From a virus, in IMG/VR virus record IMGVR_UViG_3300027365_000009, positions 85,877-149,876 of that record: a DNA stretch of 64,000 bases; one strand, 5' to 3'. Under the pieces are notes generated by a model that saw only the letters and a list, made by a program, of their open reading frames with translations, did not search any database and had not been told where the DNA came from. The position numbers were made by a program, and so were the translations under genes. Shown here piece after piece: positions 11,260 to 60,581 of the stretch. Within the stretch, counting starts at the first letter, position 1; the number at the start of each line of letters is the position of its first letter.

Positions 11260-11281
11260 GGCCTCCCCGAATGGGGAGGCC
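11260..11281. terminator. GC-rich hairpin between convergent units
   Basis: GGCCTCCCC-gaat-GGGGAGGCC preceded by GACATA. Confidence 0.65.
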
Positions 11282-42779: not shown

Positions 42780-43643
42780 TTAATAGCTGATCCGATTGCT
42801 GGCACCTTGCTCCAGCTGAGACGCAGTGCCGTTATCGGCCGCCTCAACATCAGCACCGATGTTCTCGAGCCACAGCGGATTCTCATTGGGGTTCATGCCT
42901 GCCAGGTTCAGGTTCTGGAGAATCTGTTTGGCAAAGAGCTGAGTGCCCAGTGAGACATCTGAGGTCGCAGTGAACTCGATGTTGATGTCGAGGTTCTGAC
43001 CCAGTTGCGAAGCATCCTTGGAACCTTCCCATGCCGGAGTAGCGGTCGGGTACATGTTGGTGCACAGCCAAGCACTGACCACATCGGTGAAGGTGGGGTC
43101 AGGCTCAACGTACAGGACCGTTGCGCCATAGAAGGTCGCGTCGTAGTCCTCAGCTGTCACCTGACCGTTAGAGACCACCAGCGGGACCTTGGTGTTCTCG
43201 TCCCCGATACCATAGGTGATCCACCACCGCATGAACTTGGTGATGGCACGGCCCTGGAGTTCCCAGGTACCGTGAGTCGGGTTGGAGACCGCACGGGTCA
43301 CGTTGGTCGGAGTCTGGATACGCTCACCAGAACCACCCACCGGTGATTCGGCAGTATCCACGGTCAGCTGCTGGTTGAGACCATCGATAGTCCGGGTATG
43401 GTTCTCGATGAACGCTTTCAGGCAGCGGACCATCAGGGCCGGGTCAGGAGCGAACTGAAAGAAACGCGGCGCTTCGATCAGGAAAGGGACGACATTACGG
43501 CGAACGTAAGGAGTGTTCGCTGCCAGGTTGGCCAGGTTCGGCGCAAACTGTTTGGTCCCCGATTGGGACATGTCGATCGTATTTGCCGCTTGGCCCGCGC
43601 CATAAGCGCGGTTACCAATGAACGGGTTCGTATAACGTGCCAT
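42780..43643 (-). CDS. Tail tube protein (phiKZ gp30-like)
   Basis: 287 aa, immediately downstream of the sheath. Contains PYVRRN and WLCTNMYP. Synteny supports the call. Confidence 0.8.
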
Positions 43644-43673
43644 TCGAGTTATCCTCTATGCGCTTATGGGGGG

Positions 43674-45761
43674 TTACTGGTTGAGGTCTTCCATCCGACG
43701 AGTTTCCAGATCGAAGATCATCACCGTCTTCGGGTTGTTGGCGTAGACCGTCACCCGACAGTGCCAGCTGAAACCACGCTGGTCGTCTGCCTCGGTGAAG
43801 TAGGTCTCTGGCACCACCACCACACGGTCATTGTAACGACCTTCCACCAGCTGCAGCACAAGGTTATCACAGCGCTCGATGAACTGCGGACGAGTCAGCT
43901 TAGCGTTACCAGACAGCTCAGCATGGACACGACGAACCAGGCGCATCACGTCACAGCAGATAGACACCGTGATCGGAGAGATCAGCACGGAGGTGTCATC
44001 GTTGTAGACAGAATGCAGGGCCGGGTAGTACTGACTACGGCGGTCGTAAGAGAGGGTGTAAGTAGCACCGTTCTCCCACAGGTCGGACTGGGTGCGCTCG
44101 TTGAAGAACTTAACGTTCAGGTCCTTCACCAGCTCCACGCGGTTGTTCGGGCTGACGTCGATATCAGCGCCTTCACGCATGTTGCCGGTACCCGCGCCAG
44201 CAAACCGCGCCCAGCGTTGGGCGTAGTCGAGCACCAGGGGCACTGGCTTGGTATAACCGCCACCTGCCAGACGACCAGTCTGCTGGATGATCTCAGCGCG
44301 ACACACCGGGGTCGAATACAGTGTGGACTCCGGGTAAGCCCGCAGACGCGCCATCAATGCCTGGGAACGGGAGATCTCCTCGGACTTGGTGGGCGAACGA
44401 CCTTCAGCTTCCACGTATGTGGTGAAGATAGCGCGGATGTCTTGACGTCGACCCAGGATGTTCATCATCTGGTACTTACCGTCCATGGAAAGGCCGGTAT
44501 CATATACCACTGAGAACGGATAAACCGCGAGGTTATCGTACTCGTCACCGAGATCGCCGAAGTTGAGGTTCTCGCGATTCACGAGTTTCTCATATTCGGC
44601 AAGGCTAGTGGTACCATCGCCGCCACCAGAAGCGTAAACGGTGGTTTCCTTACCCATGCTGATGCCGCCTTTCAGCGGACCTTCCAGCACGAGGGCGTGG
44701 TAGGGGTCGCCATCGATGTCCACGCCAGTGAAGACATCAAACTGACCCGGATCTTCCATATGCGCGGTTGCAGCGGGGTTCACGGCCATTTCGGCGTTGA
44801 ACAGGTGCATCTGGACAGACTCCAGATTCTCCTGGTATACATAGAACTCACTGAACGGCGCGTAGAGGGGCGGAGTACCAGACTCGATACCGTCGTCCTC
44901 GTAGGACTGGACCACCACTTCAGGAGCGTAATACTCCTTATCAGTAGACTCGCTATAAGCCCCCGGAGTGAAGCAGAAATCCACGTAGTCCTCACCGGAA
45001 GCAGTACGCACCACCACGGGGGAAGAACTTTCGCGATCGCGCCGCATAAACTGCGCGCGGTACATGCGCGTTTTAAAGGTGTTGTAGGTCTGCTCATCAA
45101 AGGGCAGAGCGTCTTCTGTGGTCGGGGCCCACATACGGAAACCGAGCAGATTACCCATTTCACCAAAGAAGCTGGCAGGCATCTCGAGCAGCGGTACCAG
45201 AGTTGACTGGGCACCATCGCGGTTGGCCACAAAGCTACCATCGACAGTCTCTTGCTTGCCGACATTGGTACCATTGTCCTCAATCAGAACGATCTTGGCC
45301 CGCACCCCGTCGACCATGACGACGTTACCGTCTTCATCATACTCGTAGTCGTCTTCCACGGTACCGGGGTAGTTGAAGCCGCTCAGTTTCATGGAGCGCT
45401 TCGGCACCTCATCGTCAACCATATCGATGGCCACGATGATGCGCGCGGGATTGGGGGCATCTTCCGGACGCAGGCGCTTCACAAAGAAGCTATTGCCCTC
45501 CGCCAACAGGGTCTCCGCCAGCAGAGACTGGAGGTTGAAGAATTTACCCCGCCGGCTCAGGGTTTCCATACCGAACAGGTCATTGAAATAACCACTGTTC
45601 TGGTTCACCAGGGTGGTCTCTTCAGGACCGGTTTGGGTGAACAGGCGCAGCAAGGGCATATGCTGCGGATACGTTTCCGGCTCAAGGACCATTGTCCGAC
45701 GGGACAGGTCATTGATACCACCGAAGATAAACTTCGGGGCGGCGTTAGTCATAGTCGCCAT
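43674..45761 (-). CDS. Tail sheath protein (phiKZ gp29-like)
   Basis: 695 aa. Contains NAAP...GINDLS, YPFS.VYDTG, YPES..Y.TPVCRA and SVY.DDTSVL.S. Confidence 0.88.
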   Translation of the reverse strand: MATMTNAAPKFIFGGINDLSRRTMVLEPETYPQHMPLLRLFTQTGPEETTLVNQNSGYFNDLFGMETLSRRGKFFNLQSLLAETLLAEGNSFFVKRLRPEDAPNPARIIVAIDMVDDEVPKRSMKLSGFNYPGTVEDDYEYDEDGNVVMVDGVRAKIVLIEDNGTNVGKQETVDGSFVANRDGAQSTLVPLLEMPASFFGEMGNLLGFRMWAPTTEDALPFDEQTYNTFKTRMYRAQFMRRDRESSSPVVVRTASGEDYVDFCFTPGAYSESTDKEYYAPEVVVQSYEDDGIESGTPPLYAPFSEFYVYQENLESVQMHLFNAEMAVNPAATAHMEDPGQFDVFTGVDIDGDPYHALVLEGPLKGGISMGKETTVYASGGGDGTTSLAEYEKLVNRENLNFGDLGDEYDNLAVYPFSVVYDTGLSMDGKYQMMNILGRRQDIRAIFTTYVEAEGRSPTKSEEISRSQALMARLRAYPESTLYSTPVCRAEIIQQTGRLAGGGYTKPVPLVLDYAQRWARFAGAGTGNMREGADIDVSPNNRVELVKDLNVKFFNERTQSDLWENGATYTLSYDRRSQYYPALHSVYNDDTSVLISPITVSICCDVMRLVRRVHAELSGNAKLTRPQFIERCDNLVLQLVEGRYNDRVVVVPETYFTEADDQRGFSWHCRVTVYANNPKTVMIFDLETRRMEDLNQ

Positions 45762-45924
45762 GTTACAATCCTCCTCCGGGTATGGAGCGTTCTAACTGGA
45801 TGTTATGAATCGAAACTTCACATGCGGGTCATAGTATTACCGCCACATGACTATAATAGTCACTTAGGTAAAGTTTCCCACGGTGTCGTTTTCTCCCTCT
45901 TTTTACTCACCAAGGATATTGGCT

Positions 45925-46845
45925 ATGTTGGTTTCTCCCTATCACACACTGATCTGTCAAATGTATCCGGTGGAACGACTGCGCCGTGAGCTGCAGCGTA
46001 TGGATATTGAATACCCTCTCCCTCCGCTCACCACACCGGCAGGTAATGTAATCGCCGATGCTGTGGTCGTGGTACCTCGCGACCACTACCAGACTCAAGC
46101 GGCATTTACCCAATTCCTGAACCTGGGCGATACCAAAACCAGCAAGTGGGTCGTCGACGGGCGCGCTTACATGCGCTGGAACCATCGGGATGATTCATAT
46201 CGTCTAACAGCCGAGAACGATTATTCGTTCCAGGCGTCTCGGCTGGCGTTGTCTCAAGTGGCCGAACAAGAAGGGGATCGTCCCTTCCGCCGGTTAGGGG
46301 ATCTTCCGGTTAAAACCTTTGTAAGGTGGATTACGCTTGCCGTTGCCCAGCGGTTTAATCTTCCACTGGAGGATCAGATCCGCGTATCGGTCATTGTGGC
46401 GTATTACTATTTCACTCAGCTCAACGACACTCGCGAACAGACCGAAGATGAACGAAATCGCCTCGCCAACATGGTCAGCCGCATTGTGGGGGCACCGGTA
46501 CCCACCGTACTCGAGGCCATTGACCCCGTGGGGGCACTGACTGATCCCAAGGCACTCTCACAAGCGATTGCGGATCACAGCGGGAATGTCCGTCTGGCTA
46601 ACCTGAAATTCACTGACCTCTATATGGTACTCGCCTCTTCCTGGATTGGTGTCAATAGCCGGGAAAACGTCGGCGTTGCCCTCGAGCATATCCCGACGTT
46701 CATCGCCACGGTCTACATGGCGCTGGGGGATCGGAGTTACCGGAAAACCGTGATCACACGTCGTGCCGAATCGTCCGGTCGTCTAAACGATCAGAAACAG
46801 TTCGTCACCCAAGTCTATCGCCTGGTGGAGTCACGCTTCGCGTAA
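45925..46845 (+). CDS. Virion structural protein (phiKZ gp28-like)
   Basis: Divergent from the sheath and first of a three-gene unit, as in phiKZ-like phages. The likely start is ATG 45925. Confidence 0.7.
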   Translation: MLVSPYHTLICQMYPVERLRRELQRMDIEYPLPPLTTPAGNVIADAVVVVPRDHYQTQAAFTQFLNLGDTKTSKWVVDGRAYMRWNHRDDSYRLTAENDYSFQASRLALSQVAEQEGDRPFRRLGDLPVKTFVRWITLAVAQRFNLPLEDQIRVSVIVAYYYFTQLNDTREQTEDERNRLANMVSRIVGAPVPTVLEAIDPVGALTDPKALSQAIADHSGNVRLANLKFTDLYMVLASSWIGVNSRENVGVALEHIPTFIATVYMALGDRSYRKTVITRRAESSGRLNDQKQFVTQVYRLVESRFA

Positions 46846-46860
46846 GCCACAGGAGGGAAT

Positions 46861-49539
46861 ATGAACGATTACCTGCTGCGGCATGCCGTGGCCAACGTCT
46901 GGTGTAATCCGGGTCAGGATCGCCAGTTCGTTTACCACCTGTCGCGTTTATCACCAAAATATGGTGTACGACATACCATCAATCTTTTTTACGAGCGTTT
47001 AACGCTGCCGACGCAAGGGGACACGTACCACGTCTACCAGATCGGTCAAGCATTGCCCTCCCGTATTGGGGTACCGCATACCAAACGTCAGTGGATGAGT
47101 TTGGCCTATCTGGCCAATGAGCATCTTCTTCACACTGATTTGTACACCGAAGAGGGGATTCAGTTCCCCCGGTTTGAGTCCTTTATCTGGATCACGCCCA
47201 GCCGTAATGTGATCGTGGCGGTCAAGATCAACCCCCGTATCTACGATCTGGAAAGCGGTCCTCTGTACCTGCGATTTTACAGCAACGCTTATTTCCAATC
47301 GGAGCGTTCTGATCTGGATCGCTATCTGATTGTTAAGGGCATGCAGGTCACCGATGATAATGCCCTACTTACGTTCCAGCGGGAAGTCCGCACAATCGTA
47401 AATGAACGGGGTGGGTTTCCCCAATACTTCGTCAATGGTCGTTTTGTCCACAACATCTCATTGGTCACGGCTGAGAAAGACGACGTCGTTGAGTTTGTGC
47501 TGGATAGTTCCATCAAACGCATGGTGGAATTCAAGCCTTCTGACCTTAAGGAATTCGAGTCTACCTTAGATCAAGAGCGCAAATACATCCTGCATTACGA
47601 TGAGCCTGACGTCGATACCATCGAGTACCTGGACGACGTGGATCTATACCTGTATAAACCAGGGATTCAAGATCGTTTTATGGGAGTGTATTACCACCAC
47701 AATGAGGGTACCTGGCTGCGAATGCTGACGCATAAGGACTACAGCATCTCGATCGAGCGGTTGGGTAGCTTTGTAGATACTCACCCTACCGACCCGCGTC
47801 ATCAGCTTAATCCCGAACGTTGGGGAAAAGACGACTGGCAAAGTCTTCAGGAAGTAGTGCTTCGTCTATACATCCGTGAATCCGGTTATCACCGTCCTCT
47901 GGTGGCAGACTCCCACCGTATTCAAGAGCTCTATCGTTTATCCAGCGATAAGATCCTTGATGCCATGACCGGGCTCAATGCAGTCAATCCCCTGTGGAAG
48001 GCCGAGGCGTTAGAACAGTCCCCCTACGTGCGGTTCATGTCGGCGTCAGATGACGTGGTTTATCCCATCGCATACAATGACCCCTACGTCGGTTCCGATG
48101 GGGAGAAGGCTGCACAGGAGTTCGTAGGGGATGTCTATGGGTATCATGCCGCGGCGACCCATTTGGCCAAGACACCGTCCGCTGTGTATACCTACGCCGG
48201 TAACCGGTACGCGGACCTCGCCTTTGAGCACCAACTCAACAGTACTGTGTTTGAGTATGATACCGACGGCGTGTTGCTGGAATGGCACTATCACGTCAAC
48301 GGAACGTATTACATTCCACGCAATGCCAACACGGTTAAGGTCGAGGCATTGACCGGGAAGGGGGGTTTCCACTCCAACACGGTATTCGGTAATGGCCCAG
48401 TGGAAATTGCCTACGGCCATAACTTCCGGGTGTACGTCAAGGACGTATGGGCCCTGACCCCGGTGGGGGAGTGGTCCGACATTACCGACGCCGCGGATCG
48501 ACACACCTATGGGTTCCTGGACACGACAGTTACCCCGAACCGATGGGTCTGGACATTGGATGACACGACCCATTATGGGGCGGTTGCCGTCGACGATGGC
48601 TTTCTGTGCTACGATCTCATGTTGACCCGTACCGACGGTCACCTTAGGTTTAGTTTGGCGTCTGTCGAGGTTCATGACGGTGTCGAGGATGAGCGGGTAT
48701 TGGATCTCCCCTTTGGGCAGTTAGATGTATACCTGGATGGACGTCCGTTGATTGAGGGACTGGATTACGTGGTCCACTGGCCCGAGGTGGTGTTGTCGCA
48801 TCTCGAGTATCTGGGGGAGAGCACGACCCACAAACTCACCATTCGCGGCTACGGGTTTGCGGACAGTTCACTGTCACGCCTCCCCACCACCGAAAGTGGG
48901 TTTATCCGGTATGGGGTGCTCTCCATGGACCGGGTGTACAACATCTGGACCCACAAAGTCCTGCGGTTGGTGGTGGATGGACACTACCACGATCCGGCAG
49001 ATCTGGTCTTTGACGAAGACCGTGGGGTACTGACCATCGATGGAGAGCGTAACGGGGCCCCATATGCGATCCAGACGCCCCCGGTGGTCTTCCGGGACGT
49101 CTACCCCCATGACCGACAGGCACGGGCCGACGATGACCAACGGGATGAGTACGTCGCTAACTACATGGACGAATACTTCCCGAAACCGGTCCGCCCTAAC
49201 CCGGACTTCATTGAAACCCAGTACCACATCATCTCCCCGTTCGCCAACAAGGTACTTCACGATCTACTGGAAGGGCATTTCTACCCCCCGGGGATTGAAG
49301 ACCAGTACAGCGAACACGAAATCCGGGAATGGTGTAAGGACTACGAGTGGCTGTTGCCGTATGACCTGTGTAATCAGGAGTACGTCGATAGTCATATCGA
49401 GATTTACCCGCACTGGCATCCCGAACCGGTGGAGTTGAATCTGTACCAATACAACTTCTATGTTCGTATCCTGGAGACGTACCTGCGTCATCCGCCCGAT
49501 GTCACTCCCTTTGTTGCTGTTAAGAGCCTACGAGGTTAA
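46861..49539 (+). CDS. Virion structural protein (phiKZ gp27-like)
   Basis: 892 aa with an NVWCNP.QDRQ N-terminus. Synteny supports the call. Confidence 0.78.
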   Translation: MNDYLLRHAVANVWCNPGQDRQFVYHLSRLSPKYGVRHTINLFYERLTLPTQGDTYHVYQIGQALPSRIGVPHTKRQWMSLAYLANEHLLHTDLYTEEGIQFPRFESFIWITPSRNVIVAVKINPRIYDLESGPLYLRFYSNAYFQSERSDLDRYLIVKGMQVTDDNALLTFQREVRTIVNERGGFPQYFVNGRFVHNISLVTAEKDDVVEFVLDSSIKRMVEFKPSDLKEFESTLDQERKYILHYDEPDVDTIEYLDDVDLYLYKPGIQDRFMGVYYHHNEGTWLRMLTHKDYSISIERLGSFVDTHPTDPRHQLNPERWGKDDWQSLQEVVLRLYIRESGYHRPLVADSHRIQELYRLSSDKILDAMTGLNAVNPLWKAEALEQSPYVRFMSASDDVVYPIAYNDPYVGSDGEKAAQEFVGDVYGYHAAATHLAKTPSAVYTYAGNRYADLAFEHQLNSTVFEYDTDGVLLEWHYHVNGTYYIPRNANTVKVEALTGKGGFHSNTVFGNGPVEIAYGHNFRVYVKDVWALTPVGEWSDITDAADRHTYGFLDTTVTPNRWVWTLDDTTHYGAVAVDDGFLCYDLMLTRTDGHLRFSLASVEVHDGVEDERVLDLPFGQLDVYLDGRPLIEGLDYVVHWPEVVLSHLEYLGESTTHKLTIRGYGFADSSLSRLPTTESGFIRYGVLSMDRVYNIWTHKVLRLVVDGHYHDPADLVFDEDRGVLTIDGERNGAPYAIQTPPVVFRDVYPHDRQARADDDQRDEYVANYMDEYFPKPVRPNPDFIETQYHIISPFANKVLHDLLEGHFYPPGIEDQYSEHEIREWCKDYEWLLPYDLCNQEYVDSHIEIYPHWHPEPVELNLYQYNFYVRILETYLRHPPDVTPFVAVKSLRG

Positions 49540-49541
49540 TC

Positions 49542-51200
49542 ATGGCTGAACCACATAAGACGTTCTACCGGGACCCCGATCGGGGGTTCCGTATCTGGAA
49601 CCGCGATGAAATCGTCCGCGATGACGGCGGGGGTCGTTGGGTTCCCAATGTTGGGGACCTGGTGTTTGATCCTGACCAAGGCTTCATGCAGGTCATTGAG
49701 GTCGATTACACCACCGGGTACTCCGTGCTGAAACTCTGGCAGGCTCCCGCTGAACCTGAAGAGGCCGAAGTCGAGGATGTCCTGCTGGGTATCGGGCCCG
49801 GCTACGCGTCCGAGTCCTATCGGATTTTCCTGGACCAGTCGGTGACGCCCCATATCCTGGCCCCAGATAGCCGTCTGCATTTCTACGGCTCCATGGTTCA
49901 CTCTTACAAGGTGTTTCTGGGAACGGACATCAGTGAGGAATACGGGAAAGTTATCTCGTCGTTCTTTGATCCGTCTGGGAATTTCCTGGGTAATGCCATT
50001 CCGGTTGAGTCCATTGAGGTCCCTGGGGCCACCAACCAGGTGATCAAGGCCCCAACCGTAGGGTACACCAGCGAGGCGATGGAAGACGGTGAGATCGTCA
50101 CGCTGGTGGCCTATGACGACGAGGGGGGTGTGGTGTCGCGTGCGCAGCTGCTCGTGAACAACACCGAAGCGATTCGTCAGGGTGAAGCGTCACGTAAATA
50201 CGTGAAAGCGATCCAGATTGATTCGCCATTTGTGAGCAGTGCTGACCCGCAGACCATCGAGTTCCCAATTAACGTCACTGTGGAATCCCTACCCATGACG
50301 GGGGTGGTCCACTATAGTGATGGTAGTCGGATTCGTCTACCCATTGATGGCTCGAAGTTCACCCTGTACGGCTTACGTAACTACGTGGCGACCATTGTAG
50401 GGCAGGAGTTCCCTATGGTACTCGCTTACAATATGGCCGAAGATGAGATTTCCTATAACCTGGAACCGTCAGCTAACCGTCGTCTGACCATGTCGTATCA
50501 GGCACGGACAACGACCGCCGATGGGTCGTACGAAGTCAAGCTCTTCGTCTACCCGGTGTGGGTCAGCGAAGCGGTGGGTTACCGTCTGGAATACTGGCTC
50601 TATAACCTGGATCGTCAGACCTACTACAACGTCACGCCGTACATTGAACTGGGCACAACCTCCGCGCCGTTTAACCCGACCCAATACGGTACGACCCAGA
50701 CCATCACGGTGGCGTTGGATCTCAATAAGGTCGATGGTAAATTCGCACCGTATCGTCACGTACAGACCTTCCAGATCGCCCTGCTGTCTCGTGGGGACCA
50801 GAACCAGGATAACTGGATTATCTACTTTACCCCGGATCAAGTCGACGGCTTTGGGCGGAGCGTGAAGGCGGAAGTAGAGTACGTCAATACCAACTATTGG
50901 CACCTGCGTCTGGATCAAGGTCTGCCCTCGAAAGAACTGTGGCTGAAGGAACTCTATGAACGAGTAGAGCCGCTGGTGAATAGCCAGGTCGAAGCGTGGG
51001 CGCCCGTCCCCACCCACTTCGTGGTCAAGACCCTCCACAATACTTACGAGTTTAGTGTGGAGCAGTGGAACGAAGAGTTGGTCATTAACAACGATCTGGA
51101 TGAAGGTGAGCTCCTTTATGTACATTGGATTCGTAAGAACTATGACACCTCACTTCAGTTGGCTGTTACTGCCCTTCCCATTCACCAAATAGGTAATTGA
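49542..51200 (+). CDS. Virion structural protein (phiKZ gp26-like)
   Basis: 552 aa, syntenic between the gp27-like gene and the terminase. Confidence 0.78.
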   Translation: MAEPHKTFYRDPDRGFRIWNRDEIVRDDGGGRWVPNVGDLVFDPDQGFMQVIEVDYTTGYSVLKLWQAPAEPEEAEVEDVLLGIGPGYASESYRIFLDQSVTPHILAPDSRLHFYGSMVHSYKVFLGTDISEEYGKVISSFFDPSGNFLGNAIPVESIEVPGATNQVIKAPTVGYTSEAMEDGEIVTLVAYDDEGGVVSRAQLLVNNTEAIRQGEASRKYVKAIQIDSPFVSSADPQTIEFPINVTVESLPMTGVVHYSDGSRIRLPIDGSKFTLYGLRNYVATIVGQEFPMVLAYNMAEDEISYNLEPSANRRLTMSYQARTTTADGSYEVKLFVYPVWVSEAVGYRLEYWLYNLDRQTYYNVTPYIELGTTSAPFNPTQYGTTQTITVALDLNKVDGKFAPYRHVQTFQIALLSRGDQNQDNWIIYFTPDQVDGFGRSVKAEVEYVNTNYWHLRLDQGLPSKELWLKELYERVEPLVNSQVEAWAPVPTHFVVKTLHNTYEFSVEQWNEELVINNDLDEGELLYVHWIRKNYDTSLQLAVTALPIHQIGN

Positions 51201-51235
51201 CAACATAAGCGGAGGGCATTAATGCCCTCCGCTCT

Positions 51236-52417
51236 TTATTTCAAAAACACAACGTCTATTCCAGGCAATGTATTCTGTTGAGCTTTGTATCTCACCCAAT
51301 GCGTGGGATTATCATATTCTTCCGATAGTTCATGAACACTCAAATAATACTTAACTTCGCCTGTTTTATTATTACGTGTTTTCAGTGGATGTGCTTTACC
51401 GGGGATACCTAACAAACTTATTTGGATTTGGTCTTCGTTATAAGGCAGAAATTCTTCGTTTTTGTGAGGTCTTCTGATATGATGACCTTTTAGGAAACGT
51501 GCGCGCCCACTGTCCAACCATCCGCTCAATTGGTTTTCTGTTATTTCTAAATAATTAATAACCTCCCTACTCGTGGAAAATACCCGGATAGTATCGGTTA
51601 GATAATTCTTAACTTCAAAAGTACCCCCACGGCTAGCTCTTCGCTGGCTGTATTCTTTGACTGAATCATCAATGTCTTTTTTATTGATTCCATTTAATAT
51701 TTTTCTCCATGATTTGTCACCATGTCTGAATATAATCCATCCATTGACCAAAATGCTCTTTTCTAACGATTCTCTTAGTCTCGTATCGGATAACCCCGTC
51801 ATGAAACTAAGTTCAAATATCGAGTTAGCTGTAATTGAAATATTGTTCGATAAATTAAGTGCAAATACGGGAATGCGTCTTTTAAGTTGAACTGAAGAAT
51901 ATTTTATTACGCTCACTATAAATTTATCGAGATAGGGCTGCCTGCTGTTGTTATAAGTCCTTAATATCGAATACGCCTCATTTTTGGTTAAACCAAAGTA
52001 ATCCCCAAATTCACGCATGGAATAAAAATCTGTTATCTTCTTATCCTCAACATTAGTGATTTGTATATGTGTCGTTGATTTAATTAACCTGTTTCTAACG
52101 GCGTGTAATTTATTCTCCGTTGGTGTAGTCCATTCCACATTGTCTTTATGGTTATTATCTTTAATACCGTCCTTATGGTTGACATTTGTTTTATCCGGAC
52201 TATCGGGCATGCCGTGGAAGCTAAGACAGACTAGGCGGTGAACGGTCTTATTGTACCGTTTGCCATCACGGTAAGGGTGGACTCTAAGATAACCAAAACG
52301 TTTATCTATATATTGTTTGAGAAGTCGTCCGGTATTTTTTCTTCGGACTCTCCCGATTGACGAAATTTCATATAAAGGGAAGTCATACATGTCAACCCAT
52401 ATTTCTTCTTCACACAT
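51236..52417 (-). mobile_element. Free-standing NUMOD4-HNH homing endonuclease gene
   Basis: EIW....FPLYEISSIGRVR (NUMOD4), VHRLV..SF and VNHKDGIKDNNHKDNVEW.T..EN..H (HNH). Visibly AT-richer than the flanks and opposite in orientation. Confidence 0.9.
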
Positions 52418-52484
52418 GTTCGTTTAATCCATTTAAAATATAAACCATATTATATGGCACTAGTATATTTTTGTTTGTTTAGGC

Positions 52485-52532
52485 CTGCAGCTCGCGGTAA
52501 CAGCGTTACCTGTTCATCAGGTAGGATCTTAA
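52485..52532 (+). pseudogene. Stranded duplicate of the last 15 codons of the gp26-like gene
   Basis: Encodes LQLAVTALPVHQVGS* versus LQLAVTALPIHQIGN* at 51153-51200. Confidence 0.85.
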
Positions 52533-52583
52533 CGACATAGTCGGGCCCTCATGACGAGGGCCCCCTAATTGGAGTCTTTAGCA

Positions 52584-53417
52584 ATGAGAACACGGTTTTT
52601 ACGCGGGAATACCGCGGAGAATAATGGACTCACACTCCCGAACGGGGAGTTGAGCATTGATCTGTAGAAGAAAGCCCTCCGTCTTCATGATGGTCAGACC
52701 CCCGGTGGCTTTGAGATGGTGGGCCAGAAAGCTTACATACCACCTGTGGGGCCCGGACCCACCACCCTAGTCGCCGGCGACACCGCGGCGGGCTTTTATG
52801 GTGAGGTAACTGGGGAGGAACTGATAACCTATGGGGCGTTATCGACGTCGGTAGGACTGTCTGCCGGTACTCTTATTAATGATTCTACATCGGTGTGGCT
52901 CAAGTTTGCCCTTGATGGAAAAACATTATTTATTAGTAAGAAACGCGTACGTAATGAAATTAGTTGGGAGGATATCTACAATATAGGTGCGGTTTATGGA
53001 ACGGGGGACACCGGCACGCACCCCATTAACGGAGGAGTTATTCAGGATCGAACGGTAACCATCGGACAAAACATCTTTAAAGTCCGCAATTTGAAAGGCG
53101 CCGCGGAAGACCCAGTCCCTAATCTCGCCTATGCCACTCATACCGACCCAATTGAAACAGCAGGCTCCGAGTGGAACCGACTACTTTACCCCGTACATAG
53201 AGATGACCCAGCGGGTTGGGCAACGTACAATAATGGGGATTTAGAATTCGGCACCGGTGTTGTTAGTTATGGAAGTCATGTACAAGAAACGTTTGAAACC
53301 GATACCACAAAACGCATATCCCGTGGGGTAAATGGCTACAATACCTTAGGGGGTGTGGAACTCACCACTAACCGTGTCATTGAGGGTTGGCGTCCCGTGT
53401 TGGAACTCATTGAATAA
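52584..53417 (+). pseudogene. Mtd-like virion protein paralog interrupted by an in-frame TAG at codon 28
   Basis: ATG 52584 (RBS GGAG) gives MRTRFLRGNTAENNGLTLPNGELSIDL*KKALRLHDG, colinear with the 42550 paralog, which has E at the stop position. The downstream ORF 52716-53417 is intact. Confidence 0.75.
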
Positions 53418-53450
53418 CTACATAGGGAGGCCCCCACTGGGGGCCTCGTT

Positions 53451-55622
53451 TTATGCCACAAAGCGTAGATGTTTTCCTGCCCGTGAAGTAAAGCGTTTCA
53501 GTTTCGAGTTACGACTGCGCTCTTCTTGAGCCTGCTTGATCATCGCATCAATACCTACCCCCATCATCTCCTGGACGTCAATGCGACCTGACAGACGACG
53601 CAGTTTCATCTCCAGTTTCTGTACCACCATTGGATCTTGGGCTCCTTTGAGTTCTTCGACTAAGGCGTTAAACTCATGCTGGTACTGTTGCTGCTGCTGG
53701 CGCTTGTATTGCTGCTCAGGACTCATCTCTCGCGTATTGTTCACGGCTTCGGAGAATACACGAGCGGAATCAATCCCGTAATACTGCAAGTGGCGAGCCT
53801 TTGTACAGAACCAGTGAGCTAACAGCCAGGAGATGACCATGTCATCGTGGTTACCTGCTGAGTGGTCAATGCGACCATTCTTGATGGTCAGTGATAACAG
53901 CTCATTGATCAAGGTCTTGTCATTGACCCGTTTGGCTCCTAACCGTAGCGCGGACTTCAATGCTTCACCGTACAGGGCATCGCGGGAATGACGACCGGCT
54001 CCCGTTGTATTGAACCCGAAATACTTCTTGAAACGGTCATAGAAGTAAGACGGGCGAGACGACAACGGCTTCTGAATTTCCGCATACTCTGTCTTGTAGG
54101 ATTCTGGTTCATCCACAATCCGGTTGTAGATCCGTTTGAAGGGATCAACACCCTTAATCGGTAAATGAATGAACATGGTATCCAGAATCGCCGTGCCCAT
54201 GGATTTCCGCTCAGGAATCATGGTGAGTTTTGGGAAACGGATCAACAGGTTAGCAAAGAACATCCCCAGTTTGGTGATGTTGGTTTCGTTATACCGTCCA
54301 GTGGCTAGAACATCATGAGTATATGAATCAATGATCACCATGCCGGTGGCATCGGTATCCTCCCCTAACGCCTCACTGGGGTCATTCCCCAGTACCGGAT
54401 GGCAGTTATTCATCCGCTCGGCAATTTCATGGTGAGGAATGTACCAACGGATCACATACCCATCGTCACTGATCTCCGTGTACAGAACTTCACGCTCGCT
54501 GTTCTTGACGTTGTGTTTCTCTTCGGTGGACAGCGGCGTACCCTCGGTACCCGTGGTCCAGATGTTAAAGTAGTCACGATCCGCCAGCTCGCCTGAGGAG
54601 TTGGATTCACGCAACTTACGGTACAACCACTCATCGGTTTTACCCAGCTGACGATGGTTGAATGCTCCGTAGATCAAGGGTTTGAGGCCCGTGGAGTTCT
54701 TCTCAACGATCTTGGCGTACTCTTCTCGACTCCCTGCATCGTAGTAGGTCTCACTCCAAGGTGCTCCTCCGGTCATAAAGCGGTAGGCAAACGCACCATC
54801 GCGCGAGTTGATGTTACCCGCCGTCGTCGTGTAGACGTTACCATAAGGTTGGTCGGCAGCGGCCGCCTCATCGCGCGCCGCCGAGCCAGACGACAGGGCA
54901 ACGGGAAGTGAGAGTTCGACCAAGTTAATGAACGCCAACTCGTCAAAGTGGAGCACGGGTACTGTTAGACCACGGCCCAGCTTATCAGCACCCACCTTGT
55001 CATTACGACCTACCGCGGTTTTGTAATAATTACCCGCCACGACATTGGTCAACATTTCATTGTTGTCAGCGTCATTACGGTTAGGGTAATAGATGTACTC
55101 GGGAAGGAGGTCACGAATCTCTTTGAGTCGTTCGATGTTGTTGTTACGTAGTGCGTTGTCTTTCGTAATCAGGTATACGGTGGTGTTTGCTGCCCAGATA
55201 AATTGGAGGCCCACCATCAGACAATCAGTGGAGACCGACTTACCGGTCTGACGGGGTTGGAGAAGCCCAAAGTCCACATGGTTAAAGAACGACCAATACA
55301 TGGCGATATTACCGCGATTGGCTTGGAAACGAATCGGCTCCGTACCCGCGTTCGGTGGTATGCGCATCAACTCACGAAATACGTACCATGGATTATAGCG
55401 GGCCTCCAATGCTATCTTGAACTTTTCTTCTTTAGTCAGTGTGGGACTGAACGGATCAATCCCTGAGAGTTCCGGCTGCATTAAGGCCAGGGGAAACTCC
55501 GCATTACGGATTCCCATTTTCTTGTACAAATACACCAGGCGTTTGAAGGATTCGTTGGTGGTGTTGTAATCAACAACTGCGTTGGGAAACCGCTCCCAAT
55601 CGCTTAGGTGGAGAATGGCCAT
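53451..55622 (-). CDS. terL: Terminase large subunit (phiKZ gp25-like)
   Basis: Walker A QPRQTGKS, Walker B FDELAF, YTTTAG coupling motif, and nuclease motifs GNDPSE and HDDMVISWLL. Confidence 0.92.
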   Translation of the reverse strand: MAILHLSDWERFPNAVVDYNTTNESFKRLVYLYKKMGIRNAEFPLALMQPELSGIDPFSPTLTKEEKFKIALEARYNPWYVFRELMRIPPNAGTEPIRFQANRGNIAMYWSFFNHVDFGLLQPRQTGKSVSTDCLMVGLQFIWAANTTVYLITKDNALRNNNIERLKEIRDLLPEYIYYPNRNDADNNEMLTNVVAGNYYKTAVGRNDKVGADKLGRGLTVPVLHFDELAFINLVELSLPVALSSGSAARDEAAAADQPYGNVYTTTAGNINSRDGAFAYRFMTGGAPWSETYYDAGSREEYAKIVEKNSTGLKPLIYGAFNHRQLGKTDEWLYRKLRESNSSGELADRDYFNIWTTGTEGTPLSTEEKHNVKNSEREVLYTEISDDGYVIRWYIPHHEIAERMNNCHPVLGNDPSEALGEDTDATGMVIIDSYTHDVLATGRYNETNITKLGMFFANLLIRFPKLTMIPERKSMGTAILDTMFIHLPIKGVDPFKRIYNRIVDEPESYKTEYAEIQKPLSSRPSYFYDRFKKYFGFNTTGAGRHSRDALYGEALKSALRLGAKRVNDKTLINELLSLTIKNGRIDHSAGNHDDMVISWLLAHWFCTKARHLQYYGIDSARVFSEAVNNTREMSPEQQYKRQQQQQYQHEFNALVEELKGAQDPMVVQKLEMKLRRLSGRIDVQEMMGVGIDAMIKQAQEERSRNSKLKRFTSRAGKHLRFVA

Positions 55623-55704
55623 AGAGGTATCCTAGAAGGTTAACATAGTCTATACCATCTCACTATGGCGGCATAACAGGGCTCCCGTAGGAGCCCTGGA
55701 TATA

Positions 55705-56175
55705 TTACGTCCCTACTTCGATGACCTTTGTGTAATTATCTCCCACCATCGCCGCCCACTGGTATATTTTTGACGGTTTGATCCGCTGATTGATAACTTT
55801 GGACTCGTCCACGAGGATATACCGTGCTCTAATCGGCCGCCGATAATTAAGGTCATTTAAATTATCGAGTATATCGATGGGCGTCAACACCTGACGATCG
55901 CGGATATGTCCGGTGGTATTCTCCAAATATAGGTCTTTATGCTCGGCGTTGATGGTAAGTATATACACCCCATTATTATGATTAGCCCAGTTGATCAGGG
56001 CGGCAGTTTTTCCACATTGACGCGGTAACGTAAGACCGATGGTATTGTATTCCCGCAAGAAAGTGGGGAGTGCTATACCCTCAGACATCCATGAAACATC
56101 GTGGATCGACGGGGTGAACGCTAACAGCTCATTCAGGACAGCACTGATATCAGTGTTCCTCTGAGACGTGATCAT
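55705..56175 (-). CDS. Small P-loop protein with terminase-like Walker motifs
   Basis: LPRQCGKT and ILVDES within 156 aa. Confidence 0.65.
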   Translation of the reverse strand: MITSQRNTDISAVLNELLAFTPSIHDVSWMSEGIALPTFLREYNTIGLTLPRQCGKTAALINWANHNNGVYILTINAEHKDLYLENTTGHIRDRQVLTPIDILDNLNDLNYRRPIRARYILVDESKVINQRIKPSKIYQWAAMVGDNYTKVIEVGT

Positions 56176-56180
56176 AGCAA

Positions 56181-56279
56181 TTAATCCTTTTGGTTCGGAG
56201 AAGAGTGTCGGCCCAACCGGATAACCAACACCAGAAACGCCAACACCACCATGCTACTGGAGAAGAGTAGCATAATCAT
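56181..56279 (-). CDS. Small membrane peptide (32 aa)
   Basis: Not in the track. Sequence MIMLLFSSSMVVLAFLVLVIRLGRHSSPNQKD. Confidence 0.4.
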   Translation of the reverse strand: MIMLLFSSSMVVLAFLVLVIRLGRHSSPNQKD

Positions 56280-56297
56280 TCACCCCGTGGGTAATTT

Positions 56298-56489
56298 TCA
56301 TTTTCGAGAGAACAGACGACGCCACCAAGGAAGACGTTTCTTGGGAAATGGAGTTGATGGAGGATATTCCACATGGTGGGTGGTGATGCTCTCACCCAAT
56401 CCCGGTCCAATGAATCGTGATTTCTCGTCAGAAGAAATAGTCCGTTTTATATCCAGCTTCGGTTTCATTACAATGATTTCGTAAGACAT
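56298..56489 (-). CDS. Hypothetical protein
   Basis: Co-oriented short ORF ending LPWWRRLFSRK. Confidence 0.5.
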   Translation of the reverse strand: MSYEIIVMKPKLDIKRTISSDEKSRFIGPGLGESITTHHVEYPPSTPFPKKRLPWWRRLFSRK

Positions 56490-56821
56490 TGCCGGCACAG
56501 GCATTTATCCCCATCGGCAATATCGGGGTTATAAGTTTTGGGTTTGTCCATACACCAGCAAGTACTCGAGGATTTACCGGCGTCGATGGCACAATAAGCA
56601 GGACCACCACAGGAGGGGCAATCGTGCGTGGATATCTGGCCTTTCAATTGTTCCATAAGCTGCATACGGTCGCCCACGGGTAATCCTCCCCACTGCATGA
56701 TTTCGGTACGTGTACGATAACACCCCCGACAAAGAAACTCCCCTACCAGACGACACTGTTTAATACAGGGCGTGAGGGGTTTCTCTACCGGGAGTGTCTT
56801 ACCGCAAGGGCGCTTAGCCAC
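56468..56821 (-). CDS. DUF1289-like plus Cys-rich CWC-like fusion protein
   Basis: GTG 56821 (RBS GGAG). TPCIKQC...CRGCYRT..EI..W followed by CPSCG...C...CWC...CLC..CL. Confidence 0.75.
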   Translation of the reverse strand: MAKRPCGKTLPVEKPLTPCIKQCRLVGEFLCRGCYRTRTEIMQWGGLPVGDRMQLMEQLKGQISTHDCPSCGGPAYCAIDAGKSSSTCWCMDKPKTYNPDIADGDKCLCRQCLTKSL

Positions 56822-57575
56822 ACTTACTCCAACCACACCCTTCCACGCAGGTGGGACACCCATCCATCAGGACGAGATCCGAGCTACACTCAGGACATTT
56901 GCCTACAGACTTAGCAGCGGGCTCATCTTTCCCACCAATCGGGGTAACCTCGGGTTCCGGTTGGGGAGCTTTCGCTTCCGGTTCCGGGGTATAACCCGAC
57001 AGCTTTTGGGTATAACGTCCCACGATGTCCTGAAGTGGTGCTTGGAAGCCATCCTCGTCCAGGAAGCCACGCTTAAACAGGATCTGTTGGATCGACCAGG
57101 CGATAGCCGCCACCTCGGAGTCATGGAATGCCGGCTTACCGTACTTGTTCCAGCCACAACGCACCAGGCCCTTATCCCAAGCGACTTTACGTAGGTCCTG
57201 GAGGGCTTGGGTAGCATACCCACCGCGAGCGGCCAGGGACAGGCTACGCATGGTGGCGGTCACCCACTGGTGCTCGGTGGAGAGTTGACCTGACGGGATG
57301 AAGAATTCGATGGGACGCTCGATAGTGAGTTCCTTACCGTCCACCACACCGGTGACTGGCATGAACGACACCACCACGTAGAGTTTCTTCTTGCCTTCAG
57401 CACCGACCATGCTGATCTTTTCAGAGACCGCCTCCAGTGATCCCTCGGGACGAGACTCAACACGGGAGGTTAAGGGGTTATCGTCCGGGATCGCAACATC
57501 AACGGTGGCGTCATCCGGGTTAGCCTTGGTCGCCACTTGATAGCCCACGATCTTTGAGGTAATTTCAACAGTCAT
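56814..57575 (-). CDS. nrdJb: Class II ribonucleotide reductase, C-terminal split subunit
   Basis: I..KIVGY.V, RPEG.L and ERPIEFF motifs, ending CPEC....LMDGCPTC...CGWSKCG. Directly after nrdJa. Confidence 0.88.
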   Translation of the reverse strand: MTVEITSKIVGYQVATKANPDDATVDVAIPDDNPLTSRVESRPEGSLEAVSEKISMVGAEGKKKLYVVVSFMPVTGVVDGKELTIERPIEFFIPSGQLSTEHQWVTATMRSLSLAARGGYATQALQDLRKVAWDKGLVRCGWNKYGKPAFHDSEVAAIAWSIQQILFKRGFLDEDGFQAPLQDIVGRYTQKLSGYTPEPEAKAPQPEPEVTPIGGKDEPAAKSVGKCPECSSDLVLMDGCPTCVEGCGWSKCG

Positions 57576-57653: not shown

Positions 57654-60581
57654 TTACCACTTACCATAGGTGCCTTCCTTGAGGGCGTCGTAGAGATTGG
57701 CCACGACATGCTCCTCTCCTTCGTAGATGACTTTCTCGTTGCCTGCCAACTCCACCTTCTCGCCGTTCTCCAACGTGAAGATATACGAGGTATCCTTCAG
57801 GTCATCTTCGCGCACTAAGACGCCCTGGAAAGCGGTTGGGTTGAACCGAAAAGTGGTTGCGCCCTTCAGCCCGCGCTCATAAGCGTCCAGGTACAGGTTC
57901 TCGAAACGCTCAAAAGCGAAATCCGTCGGAACATTCACCGTCTTGGAAATGGAGGAATCAATCCAATACTGGGACGCGGACTGAATCGACACGTGCTCTT
58001 CTGGGGTGATGTCATCGGAGACCACGAAGTAATCGGGGAGATCCTCTTCAGTGGCGTCAGGCTTCACGAAGTGGCGATAGGCGAGCAGTTCGAACGAGAC
58101 AACTTCCACCTGTTCTTTCGTCTTCTTACCCGACTGGATGATGTTGCGGTAGTAGCGATGCGAGAACGACGGTTCAATGCCATTGGAGGCATTATTGCCC
58201 AGAGACAGGGAGATAGTGCCTGTCGGCGCAATGGAACTGTGGTGGGTAAATCGCGCACCCACTTCCGCCAGTTCCGCTACCAGTTCGGGATTGGCTTTCG
58301 CAATGCGCTTCATGTACTCGCTGTACTTGGCATGCAGAATACGACCCGGGATCTTATCGCCCACTTCATAACCATCCTTCACCATTTCAGGACGCTGACG
58401 AAGCATCTTCGGGGTGACGGCAAACTCTTCGGTCATGATCGGTGCCGGGCCCTTCTCCTTGGCGAGTTGCAGGGCTTGTTGCCAGCCCACCAGGGCCAGT
58501 TCCTTGGTGACCTGGGTGGTGAAGCCCACAGAATCAACTTTACCGTAGGGCATCCCCAACATGGTCAGCGTAGAGCCCAGGCCCAGATACCCCATGCCAT
58601 GGCGACGTTTGGAAGTGATCTCCTTACGTTGATTCTCCAGGGGCAGGCCATTGATCTCCACCACATTGTCAAGCATGCGGGTAAAGATGGCCACCACCTT
58701 ACGGTAGCGCTCCCAATCGAAACGTGCCTTATCGGTAAAGGGATCAATCACGAACTTGGTCAGGTTCACTGACCCGAGCAGACACGCACCTTCTGGGGGG
58801 AGGGGTTGTTCACCGCAGTTGTGAACCAGAACCCCGTCATTATCTCCGGTGGCTACAAAGAAACGACTGAACTCGTCGACACTACCACAATAAACATCCT
58901 CGTTATAATCTAGAAACCGCACGCATTCTACCCGATGATTAGCTTCAGTAACGCGCTTGCGTACAGTATATGGGGAACACCCCAGTTGAGACGCGATCGT
59001 TCTATACGAAGCACCGCCCTCCCGCAGTTGAATCATTGTTTGGGTATTTAAATCGTTTCTATAACGACCGTTATTACCACCACTAAAATCAGTAGTTAAG
59101 AAGTGATTGCGTTCTGGGAAACGACGCATCGGATTTAAATCTCCGCGCATGTGCATTGAATTATGCTCGTTAGCCACCATTAATTCAATGTTCTCAGGTC
59201 TGTTATCCCATTTAATTCCATTTTTATGGTGTGCGTGATATCCATCAGGAACGCCATTCTCAAAAGGAACGTGGTGTTCTAAGGGCAAATGCTTCCCATT
59301 GGTTAGCCGCAAGTAACCTTTCTGATTTGCCTTATAACGGTAAACACTTTCAAGCGACATTCCGGGCTGAAGGTGCTGCGCCTCAACTTGACTGCCGTCT
59401 TTCAAAAAGAAGCGGTGTTCTGGTGTGCACCGTACCGTCTGACCATCGCCCAGAGAAACTTCGACTAAACGCGCATTTCGCTGGGTTACTCGAATATTGC
59501 GCATTGGGCGGTAAACCATTTGACCTTGGTGATTCTGAGTCAATACGTTTATATCAGTGCCCACTAACTGGTTGAATGGAATGTGTCCACGATCAGTCCA
59601 AACCCGAGTGTCTCCTGTGAAACATGGGTTCGTTGCGGTGATGGTCTCACACCACCAATTATTGTTCATGCGGTTGACCGCATCGATCAGGATAAAGCCG
59701 GGTTCTGCATAGTCATACGTCGAACGCATGATCTTCTTCCACAGGTCGCCAGCATTAATTCGTTGATACACCTTACAGGCCACCCGACCCTGATCGTCCA
59801 GGATGTAGTCGTCCTCAATGACCGGCCAATCGCGGTAGATGATGTCATCCTTAGACAGATCGTCGAACTCGGCTGCTTTGGTCGGGAAGACCAGGGGCCA
59901 CTCACTTCGGTTCTTGACCGCCTCCATGAACTCATCGGTAATGAGAAGGCTCATGTTGAATTGACGCAGCCGACCGTCTTCGCGCTTGGCGTCGATAAAC
60001 TCCTCGACATCGGGATGGGAGACATCAAACGTCGCCATCTGGGCACCCCTACGACCACCGGCAGAGGCTACGGTAAAGCACATCTTGTCGAAGATGTCCA
60101 TGAACGCAATCGGACCGTTCGTTCCAGCGCCAGCGCCATGAACGTACGCGCCGCGAGGACGGATGGTGCTGAATGAATACCCGATACCACAACCGGCTTT
60201 CAAGGTAATCCCCGCATCGGAGACCGCCGACAGGATCTCGGCCATGCCATCACGGACATTTTTGGAAACGGTACAATTTATAAGGGATACCGCGGTCTTA
60301 TGATCGGAGGCTCCGGCATTGGAGGTAATGCGTCCCGCGGGGATAGCACCATTCTCCAGCGCCCACAGGAACCGTTCTTCCCAGAACTCTCTTTCTTCTT
60401 CATGCTCGATACTGGCCAGTGTCTTGGCCACCCGCTTGTAGGTATCCTCTACCGTCTGGTCGACCGGTTCTCCATGACGATCCCGAAGGCGATACTTCGA
60501 ATCCCAAATATCATAAGAGGGTAACTGCATCGGGACATCATTGGTAGAATTAAGTTCCGGCTGCGAGACGTGTTCAGTCAT
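57654..60581 (-). CDS. nrdJa: Adenosylcobalamin-dependent ribonucleotide reductase containing an intein
   Basis: Motifs IPAGRI..NAG, SLINCTV, GGRRGAQM, TNP|CGEQPLPP.GACLLGS, SIAPTGTISL and IDSSISKTVN. Confidence 0.95.
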   Translation of the reverse strand: MTEHVSQPELNSTNDVPMQLPSYDIWDSKYRLRDRHGEPVDQTVEDTYKRVAKTLASIEHEEEREFWEERFLWALENGAIPAGRITSNAGASDHKTAVSLINCTVSKNVRDGMAEILSAVSDAGITLKAGCGIGYSFSTIRPRGAYVHGAGAGTNGPIAFMDIFDKMCFTVASAGGRRGAQMATFDVSHPDVEEFIDAKREDGRLRQFNMSLLITDEFMEAVKNRSEWPLVFPTKAAEFDDLSKDDIIYRDWPVIEDDYILDDQGRVACKVYQRINAGDLWKKIMRSTYDYAEPGFILIDAVNRMNNNWWCETITATNPCFTGDTRVWTDRGHIPFNQLVGTDINVLTQNHQGQMVYRPMRNIRVTQRNARLVEVSLGDGQTVRCTPEHRFFLKDGSQVEAQHLQPGMSLESVYRYKANQKGYLRLTNGKHLPLEHHVPFENGVPDGYHAHHKNGIKWDNRPENIELMVANEHNSMHMRGDLNPMRRFPERNHFLTTDFSGGNNGRYRNDLNTQTMIQLREGGASYRTIASQLGCSPYTVRKRVTEANHRVECVRFLDYNEDVYCGSVDEFSRFFVATGDNDGVLVHNCGEQPLPPEGACLLGSVNLTKFVIDPFTDKARFDWERYRKVVAIFTRMLDNVVEINGLPLENQRKEITSKRRHGMGYLGLGSTLTMLGMPYGKVDSVGFTTQVTKELALVGWQQALQLAKEKGPAPIMTEEFAVTPKMLRQRPEMVKDGYEVGDKIPGRILHAKYSEYMKRIAKANPELVAELAEVGARFTHHSSIAPTGTISLSLGNNASNGIEPSFSHRYYRNIIQSGKKTKEQVEVVSFELLAYRHFVKPDATEEDLPDYFVVSDDITPEEHVSIQSASQYWIDSSISKTVNVPTDFAFERFENLYLDAYERGLKGATTFRFNPTAFQGVLVREDDLKDTSYIFTLENGEKVELAGNEKVIYEGEEHVVANLYDALKEGTYGKW
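58818..59624 (-). mobile_element. 269-aa intein with an HNH endonuclease
   Basis: Starts CFTGDTRV after NP, contains CTPEHRF (block B), and ends VLVHN before CGEQ. Internal HHKNGIKWDNRPENIEL....H...H. Confidence 0.93.

Follow-up and report, generated by a model that had tools for sequence, protein, structure and literature searches.

A free-standing HNH nuclease gene between two versions of a virion gene end: a candidate end-replacing homing cassette in a phiKZ-like jumbo phage

The stretch of DNA considered here, referred to as the window, is the final 64 kb of an IMG/VR virus record of 149,876 bases (IMGVR_UViG_3300027365_000009). In it, a free-standing HNH nuclease gene lies between two versions of the 3' end of a gp26-like virion structural protein gene, one that completes the gene and is in use, and one that is stranded beyond the nuclease gene. 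Our reading, held with a probability of about 0.6, is that this is a free-standing homing endonuclease cassette of the I-HmuI type that replaces a gene end. By the usual account, a homing endonuclease can settle in an essential gene only if it is hidden in an intron or an intein. Supplying a replacement for the end of the gene would be a third route, which has bench support in the WHO elements of yeasts, whereas for the mORFs of mitochondria only the endonuclease has been assayed. The locus shows the end-replacing layout with a predicted HNH nickase in a phiKZ-like jumbo phage, and natural empty alleles are at hand for comparison, so the reading is directly testable.

The source is an uncultured phiKZ-like jumbo phage: it carries a gp26 homologue whose neighbours are homologues of the phiKZ sheath, VTX and DUF7193 proteins, together with a large terminase. 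The gp26-like protein is 56% identical to PHIKZ026 (the product of phiKZ gene 26) and 58-60% identical to the products of "virion structural protein" genes of the PhiPA3-group Pseudomonas phages, and it matches PHROG 3430 at 1.9e-217. A Megablast search of 50,697 phage records returned nothing for the region, and a scan of viral contigs with the gp26 protein returned only a 56% relative. The parts of the locus that carry the argument are as follows (positions are those of the window; lengths in nucleotides, nt, or amino acids, aa).

49542 to 51200, plus strand: hybrid gene for a gp26-like virion structural protein of 552 aa, near-identical to HNH-free relatives up to 51112 and foreign from 51113
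51113 to 51200, plus strand: foreign in-use 3' tract, 29 codons including the stop; the in-use copy of the duplicated end comprises its last 15 codons and stop (51153-51200)
51208 to 51233, no strand: hairpin 1, 11-bp stem, -22.8 kcal/mol, z -7
51236 to 52417, minus strand: free-standing gene for a predicted HNH homing endonuclease of the I-HmuI type, 393 aa
52418 to 52484, no strand: AT-rich region upstream of the HNH gene, forming the right-hand end of the cassette, without counterpart in the nearest HNH-free relative (contig L005)
52485 to 52532, plus strand: stranded gp26 3' end, 15 codons and TAA, untranslatable

Two ends of one gene

The in-use end (51153-51200) encodes LQLAVTALPIHQIGN and stops with TGA, while the stranded end (52485-52532) encodes LQLAVTALPVHQVGS and stops with TAA. 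The two agree in 12 of 15 residues and in 30 of 48 bases, and their sole common codon is CAG. An earlier reading of this DNA, made from the sequence only, had placed an AT-rich HNH gene between two gp26 ends and had counted 12 identical residues, 11 of them with different codons. All the elements lie where it put them, our recount likewise gives one common codon, and the HNH gene has a GC content of about 36% overall (0.33-0.44, against about 0.55 in the flanks). The stranded end is untranslatable because an in-frame TAG lies upstream at 52461 and no ATG, GTG or TTG follows before the end begins. A repeat finder working at the DNA level detected nothing of the gp26-end duplication. When the whole 150-kb record was scanned for C-terminal 15-mers repeated within 4 kb, the gp26 end was the only case; since, in addition, the stranded peptide is the real C-terminus of a homologue (15/15, see below), chance is excluded. 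The GC content at third codon positions (GC3) is about 5/15 in each end and does not separate the in-use from the stranded copy.

The nuclease

The HNH protein carries the domain set NUMOD4 (PF07463, at the N-terminus; 37.1 bits, cut-off 23.4), HNH_3 (PF13392; 30.9 bits, cut-off 24.8) and NUMOD1 (PF07453, helix-turn-helix; 26.2 bits, cut-off 22.8), and it matches the PHROG 59 'HNH endonuclease' family at 2.5e-41. The closest point of reference is I-HmuI of Bacillus phage SPO1 (1U3E), to which residues 7-125 align at E 4e-10. The alignment includes the N-terminal DNA-binding strands and the HKDG..DNN..N motif, with the catalytic motif NHKDGIKDNNHKDNVEW set against DHKDGNKDNNLSTNLRW of I-HmuI, and the HNH motif is intact. 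Because both the DNA-binding strands and the catalytic motif align with those of I-HmuI, the nuclease is probably a strand-specific nicking enzyme. The two differ in context: I-HmuI has 174 aa and is encoded inside a group I intron, whereas the protein here has 393 aa and is free-standing, with no intron detected (no Rfam match at E up to 1 within 50800-53600). That result, together with the fact that the gene is encoded on the other strand and is separated from gp26 by a stop codon and a terminator, led us to reject a nuclease borne by an intron or an intein. The AT-rich region at 52418-52484 is presumed to hold the promoter of the HNH gene.

Relatives without the nuclease gene

A protein search returned a homologue (P0001) that is 99% identical to the window gp26. 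It also has 552 aa, so that the window protein is of normal full length, and it ends in LPVHQVGS, which is the stranded version. Its C-terminus equals the stranded peptide in 15 of 15 positions and the in-use end in 12 of 15, the empty alleles carrying V, V and S as in the stranded type where the in-use end has I, I and N. The protein is encoded on six contigs, four of which were fetched (from ENA and Logan); a further contig that ends in this way, from a JGI metagenome, came from a separate search. These five contigs (L005-L008 and L014) come from a near-identical phage, their flanks being about 100% identical to the window over long stretches, and none has the HNH gene. In the contigs that extend past the gene end, gp26 is followed by 39 nt with one bidirectional hairpin and then by the converging gene for the large terminase subunit (TerL), and neither a second gene end nor an extra gene is present. 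Two more distant contigs, L015 and L016, have the same compact gp26-TerL arrangement. The nuclease gene is optional among otherwise near-identical genomes.

What do the empty alleles say about the two ends? The expectation had been that the gene end of HNH-free relatives would resemble 52485-52532. It does so fully in the protein, but the DNA of the empty alleles is a third version, equal to the stranded copy in only 36 of 48 bases and to the in-use copy in 33 of 48. Between the stranded copy and the L005 end there are 12 synonymous and no non-synonymous differences, which implies that the divergence of the stranded copy took place while it was still in service as a gene end and that no decay has followed. 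The idea that it is the lineage's own former end has to be given up, as it is 12/48 bases off the empty allele and both copies lie inside an imported block, described below. Degenerate back-translated patterns for the stranded-type end gave no match in viral contigs and only the L005-type empty allele in JGI metagenomes, and those for the in-use end matched nothing; neither donor lineage therefore seems to have been sampled. The alleles retrieved by a search with TerL did not go beyond 88% aa identity, and a nuclease-free phage with a window-type right flank was therefore not among the results.

The same comparison bears on whether the duplication arose locally, with the copies diverging in place, or whether the HNH protein serves as a packaging co-factor of the adjacent terminase. 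The copies are in tandem order and the HNH gene lies about 1 kb from TerL, as these accounts would have it. Divergence in place is nonetheless ruled out: the copies differ at 18 of 48 bases, although in the kilobases on either side the window and its relatives are about 100% identical, and every difference between the untranslated copy and the relatives' end is synonymous. A packaging role is contradicted by the relatives that do not have the gene at this locus and by the NUMOD4/HNH_3/NUMOD1 set, which is that of I-HmuI and not of the small packaging-associated HNH proteins. To either account we assign next to no probability.

The imported block

The cassette lies at the left edge of a longer stretch in which the window departs from its near-identical relatives. 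The borders of this block were taken from sliding identity and from a mismatch map of the window against L005. The block and the features to the right of the stranded end are these.

51113 to 57231, no strand: block diverging from the near-identical HNH-free relatives, 6.1 kb, with the HNH cassette at its left edge
52543 to 52563, plus strand: hairpin 2, behind the stranded end, 8-bp GC stem, -20.4 kcal/mol
52584 to 53417, plus strand: extra Mtd-like or tail-fibre-like gene, 278 codons (834 nt), with an in-frame amber at codon 28
53427 to 53447, no strand: hairpin 3, strong, homologue of the native bidirectional gp26/TerL terminator
53451 to 55622, minus strand: terminase large subunit gene (TerL), foreign allele, identified by PHROG 2 and named homologues

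Only five differences separate the window from L005 between 50541 and 51112. The first clustered mismatch falls at 51113 and the last at 57231, after which 1.7 kb are 100% identical. The in-use tract (51113-51200) equals L005 in 67 of 88 bases (76%), against a preceding 500 nt that are nearly free of differences. Its mismatches take up the third positions of five consecutive codons (51113-51125) and position 51134; a 24-nt core (51135-51158) is identical in the in-use and empty alleles, and from 51159 most codons differ, with 15 of the last 48 bases unlike L005. The foreign tract thus extends 40 nt upstream of the duplicated part. To the right of the in-use tract the block holds the HNH cassette, the stranded end (75% identical to L005), the Mtd-like gene, the terminase, the interval 55660-56400 and a stretch that rises to identity at 57231. 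Within 55660-56400, a 156-aa open reading frame (ORF; PHROG 2586, 55705-56175) stands where L005 has an unrelated 260-aa gene.

The window TerL is 78.0% identical to that of L005 in nucleotides (88.4% in aa) and 75.0% to that of L015. L005 and L015 are 81.1% identical to each other in both TerL and gp26, and the window gp26, of which 95% is native, shows 79.7% identity to that of L015. Since the window TerL stands at 75.0% where the L005-L015 pair stands at 81.1%, the block in the window is the import and the compact layout of L005 is ancestral for the pair. Both gene ends thus arrived together from an unsampled phage that is 75-80% identical. As both lie inside the imported block, the duplication must have arisen earlier, in the donor or its ancestors.

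It might be objected that the duplication and the mosaic are a chimera of metagenome assembly. Three assemblies (JGI, ENA k141 and Logan) are identical over 43542-54293 or part of it, and agree base for base across both junctions. At the left junction no shared stretch exceeds 24 nt, which is far under the k-mer sizes used, no empty-type contig was retrieved from the sample, and the co-occurring L016 is only 74-77% identical. In favour of a chimera, the other contigs all stop at 54293 in TerL, and the exact TerL comes only from the 149,876-base record. We regard a chimera as very improbable. As for the stop itself, it falls on exactly the same base in all three of these assemblies, and it may reflect strain heterogeneity or a branch in the assembly graph.

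Is the in-use end recoded?

The sequence-only reading went on to describe the in-use end as recoded, a word that implies design. Different codons for conserved residues are found in 11 of 12 cases here, against 46-57% among sampled orthologues (nominal P 0.003-0.02, for a comparison picked after the data were seen). Measured against saturated synonymous sites, the figure is not significant (P about 0.085, by a hand calculation that assumes uniform synonymous-codon usage). The 11/12 difference would be expected if each of the two ends had its own branch, about 25% from the L005 type. Three lineages that are each about 25% apart give the same picture, and the apparent recoding is, on these comparisons, indistinguishable from ordinary divergence between lineages; design is not called for. 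The in-use end is read here as having belonged to a diverged orthologue and been captured along with the nuclease gene, like the ends in the mitochondrial cases discussed below. Divergence may still have been favoured by selection, whether because it prevents self-cleavage or because it keeps the direct repeats from deleting the nuclease gene.

Terminators and the extra gene

Hairpin 1 is followed by CTTTATTT on the plus strand and, on the minus strand, by TTATGTTG, the usual tail in this phage. It looks like a bidirectional terminator common to the converging gp26 and HNH genes, one that copies the native gp26/TerL arrangement. Ahead of hairpin 2 stands CGACATAGTCGGGC, which equals the native post-stop sequence of L015, CGGCATAATCGGGC, in 12 of 14 bases. 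A third hairpin unit with an (A/G)CATA-type motif occupies 53415-53447, and its hairpin 3, GAGGCCCC..GGGGCCTCGTTTTATGCCACAAA, matches the intergenic terminator of L005. That each copy of the gene end is followed by its own ACATA-hairpin, as had been claimed, is true in so far as both have strong hairpins, but this is not special to them. Most strong GC hairpins of the window have (A/G)CATA on their 5' side and often TATG on their 3' side, which extends the palindrome, and the motif appears to be part of a generic bidirectional terminator design of this phage. Such hairpins occur, for example, at 11260, 12637, 16797, 31662, 35980, 55677 and 60712. The presence of a phage-type hairpin behind the in-use end implies that the captured end came from a phage of the same kind.

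The Mtd-like gene matches PHROG 1062 at 3e-44, as well as 'virion structural protein' PHROGs, and has six paralogues in the record (270-297 aa, 40-47% identity). A restart at 52716, beyond its amber codon, would yield 233 aa. It is not present at this locus in L005, L015 or L016. The gene is flanked by TAACGACATAG and TAACTACATAG, and because the first recurs as the second on its two sides, the sequence suggests that it is a second, separate insertion between the stranded end and the original terminator of that end.

Is the nuclease gene, then, merely intergenic? If so, the in-use end would be native to the block donor, and the stranded 48 nt would be a fossil of an older nuclease host with no present role. 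Two homologous crossovers suffice to explain the whole block 51113-57231, the identity of the in-use tract to L005 (76%) is in keeping with that of the remaining block (78% in TerL), and GC3 fails to separate the two copies, all of which would fit. Nevertheless, an ordered and oriented end fragment still needs an earlier end-replacing insertion, so that the timing of the event changes but not its kind. The terminators also speak against an intergenic origin. Behind the stop of the stranded copy, 12 of 14 bases agree with the native terminator of the L015 lineage, against 9 of 14 behind that of the in-use copy, and the recurrence of TAACGACATAG as TAACTACATAG before the native terminator on the TerL side suggests that the stranded end once abutted that terminator. 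We consider this explanation unlikely.

A possible mechanism

If the locus is an end-replacing cassette, the mobile unit would have three parts: a foreign, working gp26 3' end, a bidirectional terminator and, encoded on the other strand, the nuclease gene together with its AT-rich upstream region. The previous gene end would be orphaned just past this unit. The nuclease would nick or cut nuclease-free genomes within the last 50-90 bp of gp26. In donor-templated repair, the left end would invade within gp26, and the gene would be rebuilt with the end of the donor. The right end would once have been joined without homology, so that whatever lay past the break in the recipient's gene end was left stranded. 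The approximate position of the break would therefore be given by the left border of the stranded copy, at 52484/52485, which corresponds to 51152/51153. This primary event did not take place in the window lineage itself. That lineage acquired the finished arrangement with the 51113-57231 tract, from a relative 75-80% identical and with a right crossover 4.7 kb away, and a foreign terminase allele and the Mtd-like gene came in with it. The import of the block was probably due to co-conversion of flanking DNA during homing. The anatomy, the optional presence of the cassette, the block and its polarity are read directly from the sequences; beyond these, we infer that the nuclease is active, that its target lies in this region, that the in-use allele is resistant and that the enzyme played a causal role in the import. 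The proposal that the element inserted in an essential gene without splicing, by way of a substitute end, thus survives in its outline, given the optional gene, the intact 552-aa gp26 and a known layout; it has to be modified in that the end arrived inside an imported block.

Alternatively, the block may have come from ordinary homologous recombination between co-circulating phages, the nuclease gene being a passive passenger. Relative to L005, the window also has divergent patches (5-10%) with no nuclease gene nearby, and the sample also contains a second related phage (L016). However, the block at issue, which is by far the largest, begins some 120 nt away from that gene, the enzyme has an intact HNH motif, and phage homing endonucleases drive co-conversion of their flanks and sit at exchange boundaries (PMC10448857; PMC12724721). 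A passive role is, in our view, quite unlikely. The patches lie at 44041-44290, 46291-47290, 48041-48290 and 50041-50540, within the sheath, VTX, gp27 and gp26 genes, and their distribution indicates what would be frequent patchy gene conversion in this phage population.

Several observations weigh against the end-replacing cassette and should be set beside the evidence for it. At the DNA level both gene ends differ from the nearest empty allele (33/48 and 36/48), and, given the distance between the terminases (88% aa), a donor-lineage tail with 12/15 residues is as plausible as one with 15/15. The 24 nt at 51135-51158 are the same in the in-use and empty alleles, so that resistance is not assured. 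Enzymes of the I-HmuI type can also nick alleles that already hold their gene. A search of 5.8 billion proteins gave no close homologue of the HNH protein and none above 30% identity beyond its own record, nor was the cassette found at the same site elsewhere or the in-use end encoded on any other contig. With no second nuclease copy in the databases searched, the mobility of this particular cassette is a presumption. The assemblies with the filled allele are probably all from one sample. Finally, recombination with divergent relatives is common here, as the small patches of divergence in the left flank, at a distance from the nuclease gene, indicate, and it could be by coincidence that the block has its edge where it does.

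A stronger version of the end-replacing reading would make the cassette an active homing unit of nucleus-forming jumbo phages, its divergent end selected both for resistance to the nickase and against repeat deletion, and its homing dragging kilobases (a terminase allele and an adhesin-like gene) between lineages 75-80% identical. If true, it would give selfish nucleases a splicing-free way into essential virion genes, one that drives the exchange of packaging modules. We put it forward tentatively and think it rather doubtful in its full form. Even so, the cassette is linked to a 6-kb replacement that includes the terminase gene, which bears on mosaicism and competition among co-infecting giant phages; a homing endonuclease is known to shape the competition between phiKZ and PhiPA3 (PMC12908238). 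The locus also offers a suggested target region for a new enzyme of the I-HmuI type and a possible source of nickases with new specificities. For annotation, it is a reminder that hybrid gene ends can mislead gene phylogenies.

Comparison with known systems

The nearest parallels are outside phages. In fungal mitochondria, gene hybrids with mORFs have been described for atp6 of Allomyces macrogynus, for atp6, atp9, cox2 and nad3 of Glomus sp., for atp9 of Rhizopus and for cox2 of Mortierella (PMC3630166), and C-terminal duplications are also reported in PMC6279837. As at the present locus, a full-length gene with a foreign C-terminus is followed by a free-standing endonuclease ORF, and a second C-terminus, the native one in the mitochondrial cases, is stranded downstream. 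The divergence between the copies is of the same order, with 63.5% nt and 91% aa identity in Glomus atp6 (PMC3630166) and 62.5% and 80% here. In both, the stranded copy equals the end of relatives at the protein level through differences that are only synonymous; unlike in the mORF hybrids, the stranded end here mismatches its nearest relative at the DNA level. The mORF nucleases are LAGLIDADG or GIY-YIG proteins of organelles, often in phase with the host gene, whereas here an HNH protein of the I-HmuI type is encoded on the opposite strand in a jumbo phage and has a bidirectional terminator in common with the host gene.

The WHO elements of Torulaspora and Lachancea combine an endonuclease gene with a replacement 3' end of an essential gene, FBA1, and the old 3' ends are pushed downstream (PMC7282813). 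Their endonuclease is transcribed independently and may be on the opposite strand, and the host gene is chimeric, its two ends having different histories (PMC7282813). Resistant and sensitive FBA1 alleles have been shown at the bench (PMC7282813). In contrast to the protein described here, WHO proteins are intein-like LAGLIDADG-zinc-finger fusions that act in meiosis (PMC7282813). The downstream fragment was proposed to be a homology arm (PMC7282813). With only 48 nt and its degree of divergence, the fragment here could not have filled that role in the last transfer, the crossover on the right being 4.7 kb away.

Among phages, the free-standing endonucleases of the T4 type and of ICP1 (SegF, SegG, SegE, MobE; PMC10448857) also lie between conserved genes and are optional among close relatives. 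Their genes further resemble the present one in standing at the border of a tract exchanged between related phages, beside essential genes, here for a virion protein and the terminase. Nuclease genes at exchange boundaries are documented in ICP1 phages (PMC10448857), and free-standing phage endonucleases more generally co-convert their flanks and mark such boundaries (PMC10448857; PMC12724721). The insertions in the T4 and ICP1 cases are between genes and, unlike here, are not known to leave a duplicated gene end. Literature searches by literal terms returned no publication on a stranded or duplicated C-terminal gene end in a phage, which is weak negative evidence. The layout is thus known from fungal mitochondria and yeast and little described in phages, and the locus is another member.

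Other HNH-like sequences in the phage

Two more ORFs are 30-34% similar to the N-terminal part of the HNH protein, one in the window (15171-15473, plus strand) and one elsewhere in the record (C1:81200-81535, minus strand), in open frames of 157 and 540 aa, respectively. The phage therefore carries several nuclease genes of the HNH_3 type. Neither of these two ORFs has a duplicated neighbour gene end within 4 kb. The gene for the ribonucleotide reductase large subunit (57654-60581, minus strand; 975 aa) contains an intein with an HNH_3 domain. This intein-bearing subunit is 100% identical in the window and in an HNH-free relative (L005:12343-13659). In the co-occurring L016, two ORFs of 325 and 386 aa are called for the subunit, and in L015 it has 925 aa and the intein signal is faint.

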